Shown here: positions 1 through 6,611 of the stretch, piece by piece
How positions within the stretch are numbered: position 1 is the first letter of the stretch
How the letters are laid out: the number at the start of each line of letters is the position of its first letter
UHGV virus genome: UHGV-0371891
From: a virus
Reading direction: 5' to 3' (one strand)
DNA: 6,611 nucleotides
Position numbers and translations under genes: made by a program
The notes under the pieces: model-generated
The model's input: only the letters and a program-made list of their open reading frames with translations
Told to the model about the DNA's origin: nothing
The model's database searches: none

Positions 1-299
1 TAATTCATGCTTGGAATACCCACACATGTACTTGCACTCGGAAGCCCGGCGAACTTCCTGTGCGTGGTGACCTTGCATATACTCCCGCCCAAATGTATGA
101 AGCTGCTAAAGCTGGTGTACCTATTTCTGCTCAGAACATTTCTCAACTCCCCTCGGATGATTTTACTGACGAGGAGTCTTGGATTGTCCCCGTTGAATAT
201 CGTAGAGGCCAGGATATTGCTGATATTTGGAATGCTCAACGTGATGCTCGCGCTAAGATTGTAGCCGCCTACAATGAAAAGCGTAAACAGCTAGAATAA
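1..299 (+). CDS. 3' part of a roughly 104-aa hypothetical protein that wraps around the window end. It continues in frame from the ATG at 6599. An in-window alternative start is the GTG at 60.
   Basis: The frame is open from position 3 with no stop. The residue g at 6611 plus ta at 1-2 forms the codon gta, which continues MKQV into VIHAWN... The stop TAA at 297-299 overlaps the VP2 ATG (TAATG). The gene sits between VP1 and VP2 and has the same T-rich wobble bias as the core genes. Confidence 0.5.
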   Translation, partial: IHAWNTHTCTCTRKPGELPVRGDLAYTPAQMYEAAKAGVPISAQNISQLPSDDFTDEESWIVPVEYRRGQDIADIWNAQRDARAKIVAAYNEKRKQLE

Positions 300-1420
300 T
301 GGGAAAATTTTTTACAGGTGCTGGTAGTGCTCTGATTGGCGGAGCACTTTCCGGCATCTCTAATTTATTTGGTGCACATTCTCAGAATCAATCTGTTGAA
401 AAACAGCTCGCGGCGGCACGTGAAGAAGCTGAGAAAACCCGTAAATGGCAGACCTCTGAACGTGAGGCTCAAAATGATTGGAATTTTAAACTTTGGCAGG
501 CTAATAATGATTACAACACTCCTGCTGCTGTTCAGGCTCGTTTAAAAGCTGCTGGCATCAATCCCGATTTGTATGCTACTAACGGTGCCTTACAAGGTTC
601 ATCTATTCAGGCACAAGGTGGTCATACTCCATCTGGCCCTGTTGCTGATACTTCTGCTTGGAACCGTTACAGACCTATTGGAAGTATTGCCTCGCAGGCT
701 CTTGCTGATACTGCCTTGTCTGCTCAAGCAGCTAAAACCTCTGCTGAAACAGAAGGTCAAAAACACACGAATGACATTCTCTCTTCTGATGCTTCATTTC
801 GTGATGCTTTCAATCAGGGACAACTCGACACTATGGAAAGTACTATCCTTGTTAACGGTAGTAAGATCAAACTTAATGATGCGCAGGCCTCGCAAGCTCG
901 TAGTATGGTTGAACAGATCAATGCCTCTATTAAGAAGATGTCTTCTGAAATCGATCTTTTGATTTCTCAGGCAGCTGATGTTGATGACCGTATTTGGGAA
1001 CGTCATGTTCGTGTTGCTTTAGATTCGTTTATTGAGCATGGCAAGCTTAAGATATCTCAAGGACAGCTTGAAATTTCTCAGGAGCAGCTTAAGGCAGCTC
1101 TTCGTGAACTCGGAGTTAAACTACCTCTTATGACATCTGAAAAGAAACGGAATGAAGCCTTATCCTCATTCTACCAGGATTTAGGTTTCAAGGTGAATGC
1201 AGAAGAAGATCGTCTTCGTTTTGACTTAATGCAAGACATGAATTGGGATGATTTTGAGCGTACTATGCAGCAAATTCATGTTATTCTTAATGATGCTGCG
1301 GCATTCGTTCCTTTCGCAAATCCTCGTCGTCCTAGTAATTCAGGTAAGCCACGTGAAAGACATGAGACCAAAAGTGCTGATGGACAATCTAAACATGTTT
1401 ATTATGATTATTATGATTAA
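299..1420 (+). CDS. VP2: Minor capsid / DNA pilot protein (VP2-like)
   Basis: A 373-aa ORF directly downstream of the capsid gene. Its N-terminus is Gly-rich (GAGSALIGGALSGISNLFGA), followed by long Ala/Gln/Glu-rich helical or coiled-coil segments. It has strong T-ending codon bias like VP1/VP4 and a TAATG start-stop overlap with the upstream gene. The assignment rests on synteny and composition, not on a recognisable catalytic motif. Confidence 0.65.
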   Translation: MGKFFTGAGSALIGGALSGISNLFGAHSQNQSVEKQLAAAREEAEKTRKWQTSEREAQNDWNFKLWQANNDYNTPAAVQARLKAAGINPDLYATNGALQGSSIQAQGGHTPSGPVADTSAWNRYRPIGSIASQALADTALSAQAAKTSAETEGQKHTNDILSSDASFRDAFNQGQLDTMESTILVNGSKIKLNDAQASQARSMVEQINASIKKMSSEIDLLISQAADVDDRIWERHVRVALDSFIEHGKLKISQGQLEISQEQLKAALRELGVKLPLMTSEKKRNEALSSFYQDLGFKVNAEEDRLRFDLMQDMNWDDFERTMQQIHVILNDAAAFVPFANPRRPSNSGKPRERHETKSADGQSKHVYYDYYD

Positions 1421-1511
1421 TTAACCCAAAACATCTGGTAAAGTTCTAAAGAATGTCTATCTTTGTAGTGTTATAAGAAACAAAATTATCAACCTTTAAA
1501 ACATTACGATT

Positions 1512-1793
1512 ATGGACATTCTTTTACAGTATTTAAACATTAGGAAACAAAAACAAGAGTATGTGAAGGTAGTAGATCTACCCTGTAGTACAGTTTACCA
1601 AGCCTTGGAATTGGAGATGGCTGATAGAGCTATATCTTTTGTGGATTATATGCAACAAACATATCGATCTACATATCTTTTTGCAGGCATCATTGACGCG
1701 GAGTACTGTAATCGCACTGCTCGTGCGGTATTCTCTTACACTGACTTTTGTCAGTTAACTTGTGGACTGGGTGAAACATCCAGCATTGACTAA
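1512..1793 (+). CDS. Hypothetical 93-aa protein. Its coding status is uncertain.
   Basis: An ORF with an A/T-rich start context similar to the other genes. Its codon usage differs from the core genes: it uses aga/agg/cga/cta/gta where VP1/VP2/VP4 prefer cgt/ctt/gtt. It ends in the TAA that forms part of the ori-like motif. Confidence 0.3.
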   Translation: MDILLQYLNIRKQKQEYVKVVDLPCSTVYQALELEMADRAISFVDYMQQTYRSTYLFAGIIDAEYCNRTARAVFSYTDFCQLTCGLGETSSID

Positions 1794-1810
1794 CTTGATA
1801 TATGTAGCAC
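1792..1810 (+). promoter_or_regulatory. phiX174 origin-like sequence AACTTGATATATGTAGCAC (compare phiX ori cAACTTG|ATATTAATAACAC). Candidate Rep nick site between G1797 and A1798.
   Basis: Nine consecutive identities (ACTTGATAT) and about 15/19 overall to the phiX174 (+) origin core as I recall it. Flanked upstream by a second TAACTTG copy (1756-1762) and by the hairpin 1740-1755 (aCTGAC tttt GTCAGt). Confidence 0.45.
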
Positions 1811-1850
1811 AACTGACACATTGTTCAGCTTGTGTGAAAGATTTGAATGA

Positions 1851-1867
1851 GGAGCGCCTTGCGCTCC
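1851..1867. repeat. Hairpin GGAGCGC-ctt-GCGCTCC (7-bp stem, 3-nt loop)
   Basis: Perfect reverse-complement arms. It shares the GAGCGC core with the repeats at 2155-2170 and 2240-2247. Confidence 0.7.
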
Positions 1868-2034
1868 CTCGCTCAATCAGGCTACAGCCTTACGAACTTC
1901 CCAAGTTCGGTTTGCGTTCTTATCCATTCTGTCCCTTCCTCTATCGCAAACATCAAAACATATTTTTCCTTTTTTCTTTCGAGACGTGCAATAAAACAAT
2001 GCGTAGGGAAAAATAGCGTTTGGCGTTCTGTAGT

Positions 2035-2074
2035 AAACTATGTTAAACCAAGCGTAGCGACTTTAACATAGTTT
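2035..2074. repeat. Perfect 13-bp inverted repeat AAACTATGTTAAA / TTTAACATAGTTT separated by a 14-nt spacer (stem-loop or cruciform)
   Basis: Read directly: 2035-2047 is the reverse complement of 2062-2074. It lies in a non-coding region between VP2 and VP4. Confidence 0.8.
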
Positions 2075-2110
2075 GGTACAGGTTGATAAACGATATTTTT
2101 AACTACACTT

Positions 2111-2118
2111 TATCTTTG
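2111..2118 (+). promoter_or_regulatory. TATCTTTG box matching the Bacteroides -7 promoter consensus TAnnTTTG. A second identical box sits at 1458-1465.
   Basis: An exact 8-mer occurs twice, both times in intergenic DNA upstream of + strand genes. The -33 TTTG partner is poor (GTTG at 2082-2085), so the call is weak. Confidence 0.3.
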
Positions 2119-2150
2119 CACATCTTGAGAGATAAAAGGAAATTATGAAA

Positions 2151-2300
2151 TCGTGAGCGCGGGAGCGCGAACACCTCTCTGTCATCTTGGATGACGCCTC
2201 TGTATACACAGCGTAACGAAGTGAAGCGCGTCAGGGATAGGAGCGAGTATCGGCGAAGCCGATTTGTTTGAGCGGATAGCCCGCCCGGACGCCCAAATTA
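2151..2300. other. GC-rich structured island. About 57% GC by my count, against roughly 32-42% in sampled coding stretches. It contains the tandem GAGCGCG-gg-GAGCGCG (2155-2170), GGAGCGAG (2240-2247), and the hairpins GTCATC-ttg-GATGAC (2181-2195) and ATCGGC-gaa-GCCGAT (2249-2263).
   Basis: Counted by hand over 2151-2300. Repeats and stems read directly. It lies immediately upstream of the VP4 start. Confidence 0.6.
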
Positions 2301-2313
2301 AAAATAAAAAACT

Positions 2314-3711
2314 ATGGCAAATATTCTTTGTGAAAAACCAAAATATATTTTGAATCCTGCTTTTAAGGATGCACTTTTGCAAACTGGAAAATATGTTTAC
2401 AACGGAGATGCAACTTTTGTACCAGAAATGCGACTTGCTGCATGGCGTTGGAACTTTCCGTATGCCCTGTTTACGCCGAAAAATATTGACTTTCAAAACA
2501 CTATCTCTTGGGAAGATAGTTTTTATGCCATTGACCGCGATGGTGATGTTGTACCTATGTTTTTGGCAATTCCGTGTCGCAAATGTGCTCTTTGTCGAAA
2601 GAGAAATGCTCGTGAATGGATGTTTCGCGCAGTCGCTGAATCGCAATCATCCCGTTCTGTTCCCTATTTTATCACTCTTACTTACAATCCCATACACCGT
2701 CCTACAGATGGTGTAGACAAAAAACATGTACAAGATTTTCTTAAACGTTTGCGTCAAATTCTTGTTAGAGACCATGGTTATGATGAGAAAATTCGGTATT
2801 TTGCCGCTGCTGAGTATGGCAGTCATACGAAGTTGCCTCATTATCATCTTATTTTGTGGAATATGCCTATTCACATGTCTTCTATGGATGTGTATCAGGT
2901 TGTTCATCAGGCTTGGTCTGTTCGAGAACGAGTTTATAACAAACTTACTCATCGCTTTGATTGGAATTATATAGGTGAATTTGGATTTGTCTATTGCAAA
3001 CCTTGCACCCAAGGTGGTATCCAGTATTGTATGAAATACATGCGTAAAGAGAGTGATATTCCTAAAGGTTGTAAACCAACTTTTTACCTGTCATCCCGCC
3101 GTGGCGGCGGTCTTGGTTATAAATGGTGTCTCGACCACATTATGTGGTTCTATCAGAATCCTGACGTTTTGACTATTGAAATTGTTGACAAATTTACAGG
3201 TGAGCGTTTTACGTCGTATATCCCTGCATATTTTCGTCGGAAACTTTATCCAACCCCATCTCTACTTGTTCGCAAAGAAATACGTGATACTATTCAGTTG
3301 GTAGACTATTTTTTATCACTACGTGCGTGTCTTTGGCAGATACATCTTCACATGCCTGATAAAGAAGTTAATGTTACTCGTAAACATCTTCATGAGAAGT
3401 TCCCTTTTTACGATTTTGATACTTGTGTGCAACGTTTCCCCCGCTTTATTTTTAGTAATGCGAAGCATTTTTATGCTACTTATGAGGAAGATTCTCTCAT
3501 TGTTATGGAACATATCCTCGAGCCTCTTCTGGCTATGCTTGAAACTTACGAATTCGATCTTAAGTATTACAAAATGATGACTGCGGCCAAGCGTGAACAT
3601 CACGAGTTTGTGAGTGAACACATGTTAACGCAACCTGAGGTTGATATAACGTATGTTAAATATAAGACAGATAACGAGAATATTCTTGCTATTTACAAAG
3701 AAACTTTATAA
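2314..3711 (+). CDS. VP4: Rolling-circle replication initiator protein (Microviridae VP4 / gene A-like, HUH endonuclease superfamily)
   Basis: Zinc-finger-like CRKCALCRK (nt 2575-2601). RCR motif 1 FITLTY (2668-2685). Motif 2 HYHLILW (2839-2859). Motif 3 with paired tyrosines YCMKYMRK (about 3025-3048), comparable to YVAKYVNK of phiX174 A protein. 465 aa. Confidence 0.9.
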   Translation: MANILCEKPKYILNPAFKDALLQTGKYVYNGDATFVPEMRLAAWRWNFPYALFTPKNIDFQNTISWEDSFYAIDRDGDVVPMFLAIPCRKCALCRKRNAREWMFRAVAESQSSRSVPYFITLTYNPIHRPTDGVDKKHVQDFLKRLRQILVRDHGYDEKIRYFAAAEYGSHTKLPHYHLILWNMPIHMSSMDVYQVVHQAWSVRERVYNKLTHRFDWNYIGEFGFVYCKPCTQGGIQYCMKYMRKESDIPKGCKPTFYLSSRRGGGLGYKWCLDHIMWFYQNPDVLTIEIVDKFTGERFTSYIPAYFRRKLYPTPSLLVRKEIRDTIQLVDYFLSLRACLWQIHLHMPDKEVNVTRKHLHEKFPFYDFDTCVQRFPRFIFSNAKHFYATYEEDSLIVMEHILEPLLAMLETYEFDLKYYKMMTAAKREHHEFVSEHMLTQPEVDITYVKYKTDNENILAIYKETL

Positions 3712-3713
3712 CT

Positions 3714-3893
3714 ATGCCGTACATTTATGCTAAGATATATCCAAAGGTGATGCTCGCTTATGAAAAGGATAAGATTTCTTATCGTACCTTTGAGACTCTT
3801 GATGAGTATATTTTGTTTGTAAACTTTGAATTACCTGGACTTATGCGGGATGACTTCCTCATAGTCCTATCTAATAATTTTTGTTTCACTTAA
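3714..3893 (+). CDS. Hypothetical 59-aa protein (MPYIYAKIYPKVMLAYEKDKISYRTFETLDEYILFVNFELPGLMRDDFLIVLSNNFCFT). It is not in the supplied ORF track because it is under the length cut-off.
   Basis: The ATG lies 2 nt after the VP4 stop. Translated by hand, the ORF fills the gap between VP4 and the next ORF almost exactly, with its stop TAA at 3891-3893. Tight packing is typical of microvirus small genes. Confidence 0.35.
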   Translation: MPYIYAKIYPKVMLAYEKDKISYRTFETLDEYILFVNFELPGLMRDDFLIVLSNNFCFT

Positions 3894-3905
3894 AATTTTT
3901 ACATT

Positions 3906-4130
3906 ATGGTAAAATTAAACGTAGATTGCTGTTCAGTTGCAGCACAAGACAATGAACCTCGTGTTACCTTTGCAACCCGCAAATTCCTGTCTACTCAGGA
4001 AGAGATACCAGTTGTTGTTATAGTTCGTGAACACATTCCTCTATCTGCTGCTATGCAGTTGATTGTTACAGACCGTCAGTTACCTGATGGCATGTATGAA
4101 CAATATTTAATTGAACCGGAAAATGACTAA
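3906..4130 (+). CDS. Hypothetical small acidic protein (74 aa)
   Basis: The start context ttATGGtAAAAtt resembles the VP1/VP4 starts. The protein has a net negative charge, with about 12 D/E against about 6 K/R. Its end overlaps the next ORF. Confidence 0.4.
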   Translation: MVKLNVDCCSVAAQDNEPRVTFATRKFLSTQEEIPVVVIVREHIPLSAAMQLIVTDRQLPDGMYEQYLIEPEND

Positions 4131-4323
4131 ACAGCAGATTTATAAAATTATAGAGCACGCGACTACTTTCATTCTCGGAGTAGCCGCGGCTATTCTTTTG
4201 GATAGTTGCACTGCATCTATGTCCCTGTTTTGGAAAAACCAAAATTCCTCTCAAGGCACGCAACAGTCTACTACTACGCGTGTGGATAGTTTAAAAACTC
4301 CTGATATTAATGTAAATCTTTAA
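4111..4323 (+). CDS. Small membrane-anchored or lipoprotein-like protein (66-70 aa). It is a candidate lysis or envelope-targeting protein.
   Basis: Basic n-region (MNRKMTKQQIYK), hydrophobic stretch FILGVAAAILL, then DSC and a polar Ser/Thr/Gln-rich tail. The alternative start ATG at 4123 overlaps the stop of the upstream ORF (aATGacTAA). The ORF ends 3 nt before the VP1 ATG. Confidence 0.45.
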   Translation: MNRKMTKQQIYKIIEHATTFILGVAAAILLDSCTASMSLFWKNQNSSQGTQQSTTTRVDSLKTPDINVNL

Positions 4324-4325
4324 TT

Positions 4326-6596
4326 ATGGCAAATATATTTCGTAAAAAAGACGCTTACATCGATCGTGTTAATCGTTCGACGTTTGATTTGTCGTTTGTA
4401 AACAACCTTACGATGAAATTTGGTGCTATCACTCCCGTGTGTTTACTTCCGGCGTCATTTGGCGATTCTTTTCAGATAAACGCTCGTTTTAACCTGCAGC
4501 TGCTTCCGACCGTGTTTCCGATACAGACTCAACTGTATGTGCGATTACACTTTGTTTATGTTCGTACTCGTACCCTTTGGGAAGACTGGATGGAATTCTT
4601 TGGTGGTGATGAAACTGTTACACCTCCCTGGCTAGATGTTCTTGCTGATGGTTCTACTCCTGAGCGTAAAAAACAGTTTAATATCCCTGATGATTTGCAA
4701 ACAGGTTCTCTTGCTGATTATCTTGGTGTGCCTACAACTATTACCGGAACTTATGGTGGTTCTGTTATTGCTGCACGTTCTGTTGATTTGTTCACTTTTA
4801 AGGATAATGTGCCTGCTTTGAAAGCTCCTTTGGTTGGTTCTCCGGTTGTAGCCGGTGTTTCTTTTACTACTTTGGATACCATTTTTGAGTCTTCTGCTAA
4901 GTTTAATGAAGTTTTTGTATCAAATTTTGCAAATAAAGGCTCTTATGGTTATGCTGCACCTCGTTGTATAGGCATTCCTTTTAATGTTCATTATGATACG
5001 CCTACACAAAATGTTACTTTACAAGTCCCGTTAACTCGGTTTAGTCTTCTACGTCAAATGATTTCTGACTTTGATGATAATCCGATTGTTGGTTTTATTG
5101 TTTATGAAAACGATAATTCTCCTAAGCTTTGGTATTCTCAATTTAATATTTCTAATATAGAAGATGATACTCTCACCTTTAATATAGATTTTGGTAAACC
5201 TCTCTCTTCTTTTAAGTTGTGCATGCTTTTTGAGTTTCGTAATGAACTCTATCAGAAGGATTACATGTACTCTTTGTATGAGGCTGGTTCTGCAACAACT
5301 ATTCGTGCAGGTCTTACACAAGAGTTCGTTTCTCAACTTTATAGTTCTCCTATTTCTGTTGTTTATGCGTCTTCTGAGTGGACAAAACCCGTTGCAGCCA
5401 ATTGTCCTTTTTATGTTGCTGCAGCTAATCAGCTTCCTCCTATTCCTTTATCTGCCTTGCCGTTTCGTGCGTATGAGGCATATTACAATGCTTTTGGTCG
5501 TGACATTCGTAATAACCCGTTTATTGTGAATGGTAAACCGGAATATAATAAGTATGTGCCATCTACAAAAGGCGGTTCTGATTCTTATAAGTATCAGTTG
5601 CGTTATGCTAACTGGGAACCTGATGCTTACACCACTGCCTTACAATCTCCACAGGCTGGTGTCGCTCCTCTTGTTGGTATTACTTCTCTTGGTGAAGCTA
5701 CCTTCCGTGATGCTACTGGAACTGAATATCATGCACAGCTTGAGACTGCTGAAGATGGTGATACTGTTACAGGTTTTCAAGTGAAATCTTCTAATGCTCC
5801 TGCTGATGTTGTCCGGAACCTTATTGGCATGGCTACTTCTGGTATTTCTATTTCTGATTTTCGGAATGTTAACTCACTTCAACGGTTCCTTGAAATTCGA
5901 ATTCGTCAATCTCCGCGTTATAAGAACCTTGTAAAGGGTCTCTTTGATGTTAATTTGGATTATGACGAGCTTATGATGCCGGAATTTCTCGGTGGTATTT
6001 CCGATACTATTCCTGTGTATAAGGTAACTCAGACTACACCTACCGAAGGTAATCCTCTTGGTAGTTTTGCTGGTCAAGGCTCCTTGCAATCCGGTATGCG
6101 CCACGTTATCCGTAAGTATTGCCCGGAAGATGGTTATATTCTCGGTGTTATGTCTGTTGTACCTGCTGCTAATTATTCGCAGTTGTTGGCGCCTCATTTT
6201 ACACGTATGAACCTTTTGGATTGGCATTTTCCGCAGTTTAACAATATAAGCTATCAGCCTATGTTGTACAAACATTTATGCCCTTATCAGGCTTATGCTG
6301 CGAATCCTCAGAATATTAACAATGTATTTGGTTATCAACGTGCATATTGGGATTTAATTTCTTCATTTGATGAAGTACACGGTGAATTTCGCGGTTCTAT
6401 GAGAAACTTTCTTATTAATCGTGTGTTCGATAAGGCTCCTGAACTCTCTAAAGATTTCCTGCTTGTTAATCCAGACCATGTTAATGATGTGTTTGCTATG
6501 ACTGCCGAAAATGGTGATAAGATTTTAGGTAGTATTGCTTTTGACATCACTAAGAAAACTACTATACCTCGTAACTCAATACCTCATATTGAATGA
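4326..6596 (+). CDS. VP1: Major capsid protein (Microviridae F / VP1 family)
   Basis: The N-terminus STFDLSFVNNLTMKFGAITPVCLLPASFGDSFQINARFNLQLLP...LYVRLHFVYVRTRTLWEDWMEFFGGD runs parallel to phiX174 F (HDLSH..G.L..I....VIAGDSFEMD..LRLSPL...FTFYVPHRHVYGEQWIKFMKDG). 756 aa, consistent with the enlarged VP1 of Bacteroidetes-associated microviruses. Confidence 0.92.
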   Translation: MANIFRKKDAYIDRVNRSTFDLSFVNNLTMKFGAITPVCLLPASFGDSFQINARFNLQLLPTVFPIQTQLYVRLHFVYVRTRTLWEDWMEFFGGDETVTPPWLDVLADGSTPERKKQFNIPDDLQTGSLADYLGVPTTITGTYGGSVIAARSVDLFTFKDNVPALKAPLVGSPVVAGVSFTTLDTIFESSAKFNEVFVSNFANKGSYGYAAPRCIGIPFNVHYDTPTQNVTLQVPLTRFSLLRQMISDFDDNPIVGFIVYENDNSPKLWYSQFNISNIEDDTLTFNIDFGKPLSSFKLCMLFEFRNELYQKDYMYSLYEAGSATTIRAGLTQEFVSQLYSSPISVVYASSEWTKPVAANCPFYVAAANQLPPIPLSALPFRAYEAYYNAFGRDIRNNPFIVNGKPEYNKYVPSTKGGSDSYKYQLRYANWEPDAYTTALQSPQAGVAPLVGITSLGEATFRDATGTEYHAQLETAEDGDTVTGFQVKSSNAPADVVRNLIGMATSGISISDFRNVNSLQRFLEIRIRQSPRYKNLVKGLFDVNLDYDELMMPEFLGGISDTIPVYKVTQTTPTEGNPLGSFAGQGSLQSGMRHVIRKYCPEDGYILGVMSVVPAANYSQLLAPHFTRMNLLDWHFPQFNNISYQPMLYKHLCPYQAYAANPQNINNVFGYQRAYWDLISSFDEVHGEFRGSMRNFLINRVFDKAPELSKDFLLVNPDHVNDVFAMTAENGDKILGSIAFDITKKTTIPRNSIPHIE

Positions 6597-6598
6597 TT

Positions 6599-6611
6599 AT
6601 GAAACAAGTTG
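6599..6611 (+). CDS. 5' start (MKQV...) of the wrap-around gene that continues at position 1
   Basis: The ATG lies 2 nt after the VP1 TGA. The reading frame joins without a stop to the frame open at the window start, if the molecule is circular. Confidence 0.4.

Follow-up and report, generated by a model that had tools for sequence, protein, structure and literature searches.

Described systems closest to the genome

The Alpavirinae were originally described as proviruses of Bacteroidales with genomes above 6 kb, in which only VP1, VP2 and VP4 are recognisable and a conserved open reading frame (ORF) follows VP1 (PMC3394797, PMC3091885). This conserved ORF 3' of VP1 in Bacteroidetes microviruses was proposed to encode a VP3-like internal scaffolding protein (Krupovic and Forterre 2011, PMC3091885; Roux 2012, PMC3394797). 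For replication, protein A cleaves the origin (ori) of phiX174 between G4305 and A4306 (bioRxiv 10.64898/2026.07.25.740675), while in Frpo of the F plasmid and in the Ff minus-strand origin, ori(-), a single-strand hairpin rebuilds a promoter at which an RNA primer is made (PMC9849209). Here the virus genome UHGV-0371891, a stretch of 6611 nucleotides (nt) called the window below, is compared with these systems, with emphasis on the non-coding region before its gene for the rolling-circle protein Rep, in which a candidate plus-strand origin, a long hairpin with putative Rep promoter boxes, and a structured element named element B were found. The window is almost certainly exactly one turn of a circular human-gut microvirus genome (class Microviricetes), from a well-sampled clade that includes a relative integrated as a provirus in a Bacteroidales genome.

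Circularity and gene content

The preliminary description of the window, made from its letters, proposed a complete circular microvirus genome with one gene spanning the point of linearisation, and the follow-up bears out both parts. No terminal repeat was found within the 6,611-nt window itself, so the evidence for circularity was taken from other assemblies. Lookup of the exact VP1 sequence led to two ENA contigs with identical VP1 from separate human-gut assemblies, L001 (6757 nt, sample ERZ920108) and L002 (6686 nt, sample ERZ28660249). Both are cut inside Rep, unlike the window, which is cut inside the gene named here the junction gene. Against a doubled window, L001 aligned over 6674 nt at 100% identity and L002 over 6669 nt at 99.985% identity, so that the contigs run 63 and 58 nt past one turn, respectively, and overlap themselves by these lengths. 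The 60-mer across 6611/1 is internal in both contigs, with no mismatch at the junction.

When 6611 is joined to 1, the junction gene reads ATG (6599) AAA CAA GTT G/TA ATT and remains in phase to its stop codon, giving a product of 103 amino acids (aa), MKQVVIHAWN...KRKQLE. An alternative start, ATG 6593, overlaps the VP1 stop, has an in-frame stop upstream (TGA 6590-6592) and gives 105 aa; ATG 6599 is the start that aligns with that of Dulem virus 258, while gene calling in L001 and L002 placed a 105-aa gene immediately 3' of VP1. In Dulem virus 258, a hypothetical protein encoded between VP1 and the pilot gene shares 74% identity with the junction protein; for the corresponding ORF of bajarodmic virus 65, a far more distant phage, the value is 32%. 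Homologues also lie directly 3' of VP1 in L003, L004, L188 and L189, relatives that include SH-CHD12, a contig from a Chitinophaga assembly and a Bacteroidales provirus. Because it follows VP1 in every relative examined, the junction gene is regarded as real, and the preliminary claim of a gene across the linearisation point stands on these homologues as well as on the frame. By its position and the published proposals, the product is probably a VP3-like internal scaffold; speaking against this role, no match to it was found in Pfam or PHROGs.

The three diagnostic proteins gave strong Microviridae-family matches in the profile searches suggested with the preliminary description. VP1 matched Pfam PF02305 (Phage_F) at E 1.7e-48 with 166 bits (cut-off 25) and PHROG 514 (major head protein) at E 2.7e-103, and its relatives among solved structures are 8DES_A (E 1.5e-25) and 9CGM_A (E 1e-15). 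Rep matched PF23343 (E 2.4e-18) and PHROG 942 (E 1.8e-58) and carries motif 1 FITLTY (residues 119-124), the HUH motif HYHLIL (176-181) and the two-tyrosine motif YCMKY (238-242). VP2 matched two PHROG families annotated as "pilot protein for DNA ejection" (8689, E 3.2e-11; 31272, E 3.3e-10) and is 60% identical to the annotated pilot protein of Dulem virus 258. The nine genes of the window are on the + strand throughout, with the order round the circle of VP1, the small junction gene, VP2 pilot, ORF93, Rep and three small ORFs (Table 1). A search of the window for tRNA and tmRNA found none.

Several points weigh against the reading of the window as one full turn of a single-stranded gut virus genome. 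After the wrap-round, both contigs end in unrelated 3' tails (L001 6675-6757, 83 nt; L002 6670-6686, 17 nt); the circularity check is at the level of assemblies rather than of read mapping; and neither single-strandedness nor host is readable from sequence, so that we infer both. The tails are taken as assembly noise, that of L001 being probably a chimeric read or an assembly join. Translated, this 83-nt tail presumably resembles the transcription terminator Rho.

Table 1. Features of the UHGV-0371891 window, with coordinates counted from its first nucleotide
Feature	Coordinates	Strand	Remarks
Junction gene, 5' part	6593..6611	+	ATG 6599 or ATG 6593
Junction gene, remainder	1..299	+	TAA 297-299 overlaps VP2 ATG at 299
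VP2 DNA pilot protein, 373 aa	299..1420	+	PHROG pilot families
Small hairpin	1448..1524	+	inverted repeat; arms 1448-1476 and 1496-1524, 29 nt each
ORF93, accessory protein gene, 93 aa	1512..1793	+	conserved frame
Candidate plus-strand origin	1767..1836	+	hairpin 1767-1783, TAACTTG^ATATATGTAG, hairpin 1808-1836
Imperfect hairpin, ~190 nt	1959..2147	+	Rep promoter boxes in 3' arm
Putative Bacteroidetes-type Rep promoter	2081..2118	+	GTTGAT (-33-like, from 2083), TATCTTTG (-7 box, 2111-2118)
Element B, 67-nt structured element	2228..2294	+	19 nt upstream of Rep ATG
VP4 rolling-circle Rep, 465 aa	2314..3711	+	PF23343, PHROG 942
Small conserved ORF, 59 aa	3714..3893	+	called in L001, L002
Small conserved ORF, 74 aa	3906..4130	+	relatives 57-89% identical
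Small conserved ORF, 66 aa	4123..4323	+	homologues in relatives
VP1 major capsid protein, 756 aa	4326..6596	+	Pfam PF02305, PHROG 514

ORF93 and the limits of the non-coding region

The extent of the non-coding region depends on ORF93, which the preliminary description overlooked. In 16 relatives, the most distant at 43% identity, the frame of ORF93 has no interruption; at low divergence, synonymous and non-synonymous codon changes are about equal, and one relative differs by a 12-nt in-frame indel. Taken together, the intact frame, the pattern of codon changes and the in-frame indel indicate that ORF93 is protein-coding and, as judged from its sequence, a real gene. No family in Pfam or PHROGs matched its product. 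With ORF93 counted as coding, the true non-coding region is reduced to 1794-2313, about 520 nt. Upstream of ORF93 and overlapping its start codon, the small hairpin of Table 1 carries a second TATCTTTG box (1458-1465), and it is possibly an ORF93 promoter or a translational hairpin. The same hairpin gave a spurious microRNA match in Rfam.

Candidate plus-strand origin

Unannotated DNA of SH-CHD12 and Dulem virus 258 matches the interval 1762-1849 at 88-91% nucleotide identity, and the origin-like element is thus better conserved than the VP1 of these phages (63-76% aa identity). All genomes examined from the window clade carry its central motif, TAACTTGATATATGTAGCACAACTG, unchanged on the gene strand, and the TAACTTGATAT between the two hairpins matches the phiX174 origin core at the nick without a difference. 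In fact, the 10-mer AACTTGATAT is the core of the 30-nt phiX174/G4 origin, which was confirmed at phiX174 4299-4328 and found identical in 544 records. In L188, the first hairpin of the origin carries one compensatory change, from CTGG/CCAG to CCGG/CCGG. The predicted Rep nick is most likely TAACTTG^ATAT, between G1797 and A1798.

The likeness to the phiX174/G4 system lies in this 10-nt identity around the cleavage site on the viral-sense strand and in the Rep of the window, which likewise has HUH and YxxKY motifs. The two systems differ in that the phiX174 origin is within gene A, whereas that of the window is intergenic except for its overlap with the 3' end of ORF93, and has a hairpin on either side; furthermore, the 3' two-thirds of the phiX174 30-mer are not conserved in the window, where the nick site is a predicted one. 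To our knowledge, no origin has been mapped outside the phiX174 group. In the GC-rich stretch 3' of the origin (1846-1935) another hairpin, GGAGCGCCTTGCGCTCC, was observed, and in the relative from the Chitinophaga assembly it carries compensatory changes (GCAGCCC...GGGCTGC).

Long hairpin and putative Rep promoter

Folded as single-stranded DNA, the long hairpin has an energy of -41.2 kcal/mol (z = -8.5), and none of 200 shuffled sequences was as stable. A consensus over 18 genomes comprises 53 pairs, in which 96.5% of the cells are paired and 31 pairs show compensatory changes; these values were reached in none of 500 shuffles, and slid controls were paired at most to 54%. Wobble pairs of the G-T/U type account for 117 of 934 cells (12.5%), two of them being invariant, which assigns the fold to the + strand. 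The energies of the two strands differ little (-41.2 vs -38.2 kcal/mol), so that the strand specificity rests on the wobble counts. The hairpin with its promoter module is common to clades whose VP1 is only 21-42% identical to that of the window.

Within the 3' arm, conservation across the 18-genome alignment is highest in the GTTGAT and TATCTTTG boxes, and both are oriented toward the hairpin base and Rep. The two boxes fit the promoter consensus in Bacteroides, which is TTTG at -33 and TAnnTTTG at -7. From their sequence, the boxes are a putative Rep promoter in the duplex form.

A second use of the same boxes is suggested by the comparison with Frpo and Ff ori(-). Shared with those systems are the long imperfect hairpin on the entering strand, the rebuilt duplex promoter, the unpaired bases around the box equivalent to -10, and the direction, toward the hairpin base with RNA made on a single-stranded template, the geometry of which we infer. 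The boxes of the window differ in being of the Bacteroidetes type (-33/-7) and not sigma-70, and in that they would double as an ordinary Rep promoter in duplex DNA; neither Frpo nor the G4 complementary-strand origin resembles the long hairpin in sequence. In the proposed mechanism, the hairpin of the incoming + strand would rebuild the -33/-7 promoter, and host RNA polymerase would continue beyond the hairpin base with the + strand as its template. The RNA so made would prime the complementary strand, the hairpin acting as an Frpo-like or Ff-ori(-)-like minus-strand origin; once the genome is a duplex replicative form, Rep would be expressed from these boxes.

Element B

Element B of the window has the layout GCGUC-A-GGG-AU (irregular hairpin with a GCGAAGC mini-hairpin) AG-CCC-GCCCG-GACGC-CC, and it matches unannotated DNA of distant microviruses. 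IMG/VR was scanned twice by pattern for the element, and a covariance model, R1, run on the loci fetched, recovered 96 copies. Their general plan is GCGUN-A-GGG-AU, a variable domain, AG-CCC-G, an optional hairpin and N'ACGC, over 60-100 nt. The ten core pairs are paired in 99.1% of cases and six of them show compensatory changes; covariation at position 5 is partly an artefact of selection, from which positions 4, 7, 8 and 12 are free.

Element B occurs in several microvirus clades, at differing genome positions and in some of them antisense to every gene. In another microvirus clade (L007, L021, L046, L054, L093 and others) it lies on the strand opposite to all genes, and in L007, L046 and L054 directly after the Rep stop codon. 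The ACTTGATATA motif is likewise on the opposite strand in L007, L054 and L093, and intergenic in L007 and L054; if this is the Rep nick site, phages of the L007, L054 and L093 type would package the antisense strand. Contigs of 10-80 kb that encode terminase, capsid and integrase also carry element B, some of them 3-5 times and on both strands. Among these, L110, L155, L157, L186 and L187 are prophage-like contigs of about 60% GC, with 3-5 copies within a few kb, often as divergent or convergent intergenic pairs. A role as a 5'-leader element in the tailed-phage contigs was rejected, since the orientation to ORFs supported by GC content at third codon positions was random (12 same, 15 opposite).

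Known families offer no home for the element. With Rfam 15, no family reached its gathering threshold in the window, in 12 element-bearing loci or in short excerpts; a CRISPR-DR36 match reached 19 bits against a threshold of 38, and microRNA matches in the window were generic matches to AT-rich hairpins. Assignment to Flavo-1 (RF01705) was rejected because the score, 14.6 bits, is below the gathering threshold of that family (42). Element B shares with Flavo-1 the internal-loop core GGGAU-NGNAGC...GCGGA-NAGCCC and the occurrence in either orientation, reported for Flavo-1 relative to transcripts. Element B departs from Flavo-1 by an added outer helix (GCGUN/N'ACGC), by a 3' hairpin that is optional, and by a different host range, in which phages of GC-rich hosts are found. 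Kinship with the G4 complementary-strand origin was also discarded, no similarity to the G4 F-G spacer being seen by reading. By BLAST, variants of element B had three matches, all unannotated, in the collection of annotated phages and no match among plasmids, and a literature search on structured RNA in Microviridae found nothing relevant. In the copy of L188 the outer helix is missing its 3' strand, a loss which indicates that element B is dispensable there.

DNA or RNA

The hairpin loops of element B are C(GNA)G triloops in 35 of 184 cases and GNRA tetraloops in 4. The C(GNA)G pattern is known for very stable DNA mini-hairpins. Both the loop types and the independence of orientation suggest folded DNA rather than RNA, and we consider it about evenly balanced whether element B is a folded-DNA element of the repetitive extragenic palindrome (REP) kind; that it is a cis-acting RNA appears to us distinctly less probable than that, yet well worth keeping in view.

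The main alternative extends the RNA reading to both structures, the long hairpin and element B acting in + sense transcripts, where they might serve, for instance, to terminate transcription, to provide an RNase site, or to control Rep as a leader or as a structure that stabilises the mRNA. Both lie on the strand that is here also the mRNA sense, the long hairpin has the proportion of G-U-type wobbles typical of RNA helices, and element B precedes an ORF in most microviruses, as it does Rep in the window. However, the 5' arm of the long hairpin is upstream of the predicted Rep promoter, the whole 193-nt leader folded as RNA is no stabler than its shuffles (z = -0.35), and for element B the antisense copies in several microvirus clades, the lack of orientation bias in GC-rich contigs and the prevalence of triloops over GNRA tetraloops all speak for something other than a transcript. 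This alternative is a serious minority possibility. The DNA proposal in its full form, in which the long hairpin would serve both as a single-stranded-DNA promoter or minus-strand origin and as the Rep promoter, and element B would belong to a large uncatalogued folded-DNA family of microviruses and tailed phages, is likewise tentative, and as a combined claim it is rather unlikely. If true, it would give microviruses an Frpo- or Ff-ori(-)-like minus-strand origin, of a kind not described for them.

Relatives and taxonomic placement

In the annotated phage collection, the close VP1 relatives are OP971957 (VP1 only, 83% identity), SH-CHD12 (KX513875, 76%) and Dulem virus 258 (PP511798, 63%), and the next tier is at 34-40%. 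A large protein collection holds more than 100 VP1 clusters at no less than 73% identity, mostly from contigs of 6.3-6.8 kb, which shows that the clade is common and the genome size typical. SH-CHD12 and Dulem virus 258 have the gene order and set of the window, including the ORF after VP1 and three ORFs before it; their Rep, however, is only about 50% identical to that of the window, neither of them has ORF93, element B or the module of the long promoter hairpin, and their length is 220-250 nt below that of the window.

Bacterial genomes, when scanned, yielded three loci. The closest match in a genome assembly is L188 (NZ_QTJV01000041.1, Chitinophaga silvisoli contig41), a stand-alone contig of 6689 nt with 85% VP1 identity. 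The presence of this complete relative in the isolate assembly of a soil Chitinophaga is due either to contamination or to a genuine episome. A 5.4-kb contig binned with a Bacteroides metagenome-assembled genome has a VP1 37% identical, and L189 is a provirus with 47% VP1 identity and the same gene order, in a 170-kb contig of an uncultured Bacteroidales bacterium. This provirus and the Bacteroidetes-type promoter boxes are consistent with a Bacteroidales association, and the window virus may have its host in that order.

The preliminary description had placed the genome with Alpavirinae-like rather than phiX-like microviruses, and the second half of this statement is firm. The F protein of G4 scored only 27 bits against VP1, and Bullavirinae F has about 427 aa compared with the 756 aa of VP1; no homologues of G, D or J were found, as neither Pfam nor PHROGs gave a match to the Bullavirinae external scaffold D, spike G or J among ten ORFs tested. 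The first half stands as far as gene order, size, the Bacteroidales provirus relative and the promoter boxes go, and falters on direct comparison, in which the two Alpavirales exemplars tested were no nearer to the window than a gokushovirus. With the Alpavirinae as first defined (BMV1-7, proviruses of Bacteroides and Prevotella), the window shares the size above 6 kb, the order VP1-ORF-VP2-VP4, the human gut origin and a relative integrated in Bacteroidales between direct repeats; a dif-like site was not found in the window, and the likeness is one of traits. The findings on the window clade also match Kirchberger's description of Family 5. NCBI taxonomy lists all the nearest named relatives as "unclassified Microviridae" and is of no help for placement.

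The order Alpavirales exists in the current taxonomy, with five families. The exemplars compared here stand for two of them, Lilleviridae and Litenviridae. In summed BLASTP bits, the window VP1 scored 140 with Chp2 (Gokushovirinae), 113 with Tortoise microvirus 40 (Litenviridae) and 48 with Tortoise microvirus 7 (Lilleviridae), and the window Rep 82 with Chp2 and 44 with Tortoise microvirus 7. That neither exemplar is closer to the window VP1 than Chp2 counts against the Alpavirinae-like placement; the two tortoise microviruses share only 30 bits with each other, so nearly unrelated by BLAST that pairwise scores are unable to place the virus.

The same scores favour the alternative that this microvirus lies outside the Alpavirinae and Alpavirales, as a separate Bacteroidales-associated lineage, in Kirchberger's Suborder III, nearer to gokushovirus-like families. 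So does the best solved-structure match, 8DES_A, deposited as a major capsid protein, which we take to be that of a gokushovirus. Opposed to this are the uninformative nature of scores between exemplars so far apart, the coverage of two of the five families, and the original Alpavirinae traits seen in the clade (a provirus relative in Bacteroidales, size above 6 kb, only VP1, VP2 and VP4 recognisable, a conserved ORF after VP1). We give such a separate lineage an appreciable chance, if short of an even one, and the Alpavirinae-like placement remains plausible but unproven.

Integration of relatives

The L189 provirus is bounded by 21-nt direct repeats at 7129-7149 and 13523-13543, 6394 nt apart, of sequence TAATAGTGATTATG(A/G)GCAAAA. 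By eye, this repeat resembles a dif-like site (TAA-N6-TTATG). In the window, no copy of the repeat was found at up to three mismatches, and CATAA-N6-TTATG, the pattern searched for a dif-like site, occurred at chance level only; lysogeny of the window virus is therefore unsupported, a point against extending the habit of its relative to it. In BMV2 and BMV7, too, no dif-like site was found, and such a site is hence not universal in the group (Krupovic and Forterre, PMC3091885). An ENA scaffold of 14099 nt, L192, was rejected as evidence of host or lysogeny because it is probably a scaffolding chimera. In it, a near-complete relative is fused to DNA of an unrelated tailed phage, whose holin, peptidase and structural genes lie on the other strand.

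That the window is a linear excerpt of an integrated provirus or larger element, with ATG 6599 in phase by coincidence, is extremely improbable, for although relatives such as L189 integrate and short foreign tails end L001 and L002, two independent assemblies pass 6611/1 and repeat their own first 58-63 nt, the junction gene is unbroken in all relatives, contigs with close VP1 cluster at 6.3-6.8 kb, and no dif-like site was found in the window.

Small ORFs and translation starts

Of the three small ORFs between Rep and VP1, the 59-aa ORF has homologues at 88% identity in L188 and 40-42% in L003 and L004. The 66-aa ORF has a hydrophobic N-terminus ending in LLDSC, by eye a lipobox and thus a possible lipoprotein signal; a small lipoprotein could act in lysis or in superinfection exclusion. 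The starts of Rep and VP1 (2310-2337 and 4322-4349) share a 28-mer at 82% identity, AAyTATGGCAAATATwyTTyGTrAAAAA, and both proteins begin with MANI; the 28-mer may be a shared context for translation initiation.

Proposed replication and significance

From phiX174 biology, the packaged + strand would first become a double-stranded replicative form. Rep, with its HUH and YxxKY motifs, would then nick the + strand, most likely at 1797/1798, and drive rolling-circle synthesis, and the new + strands would enter VP1 capsids built with the scaffold-like junction protein and the VP2 pilot.

The genome by itself adds little, since the clade has been sampled heavily and public gut assemblies contain identical or near-identical sequences. 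It can serve as a clean, complete reference for a clade of microviruses probably associated with Bacteroidales, with the regulatory region well delimited. The non-coding region of about 520 nt, with its conserved, folded and uncatalogued elements, is more interesting than the genome: it yields a testable Rep nick site, a hairpin supported by covariation and a widespread structured element absent from Rfam, and the long hairpin could explain how the complementary strand is primed in these phages.

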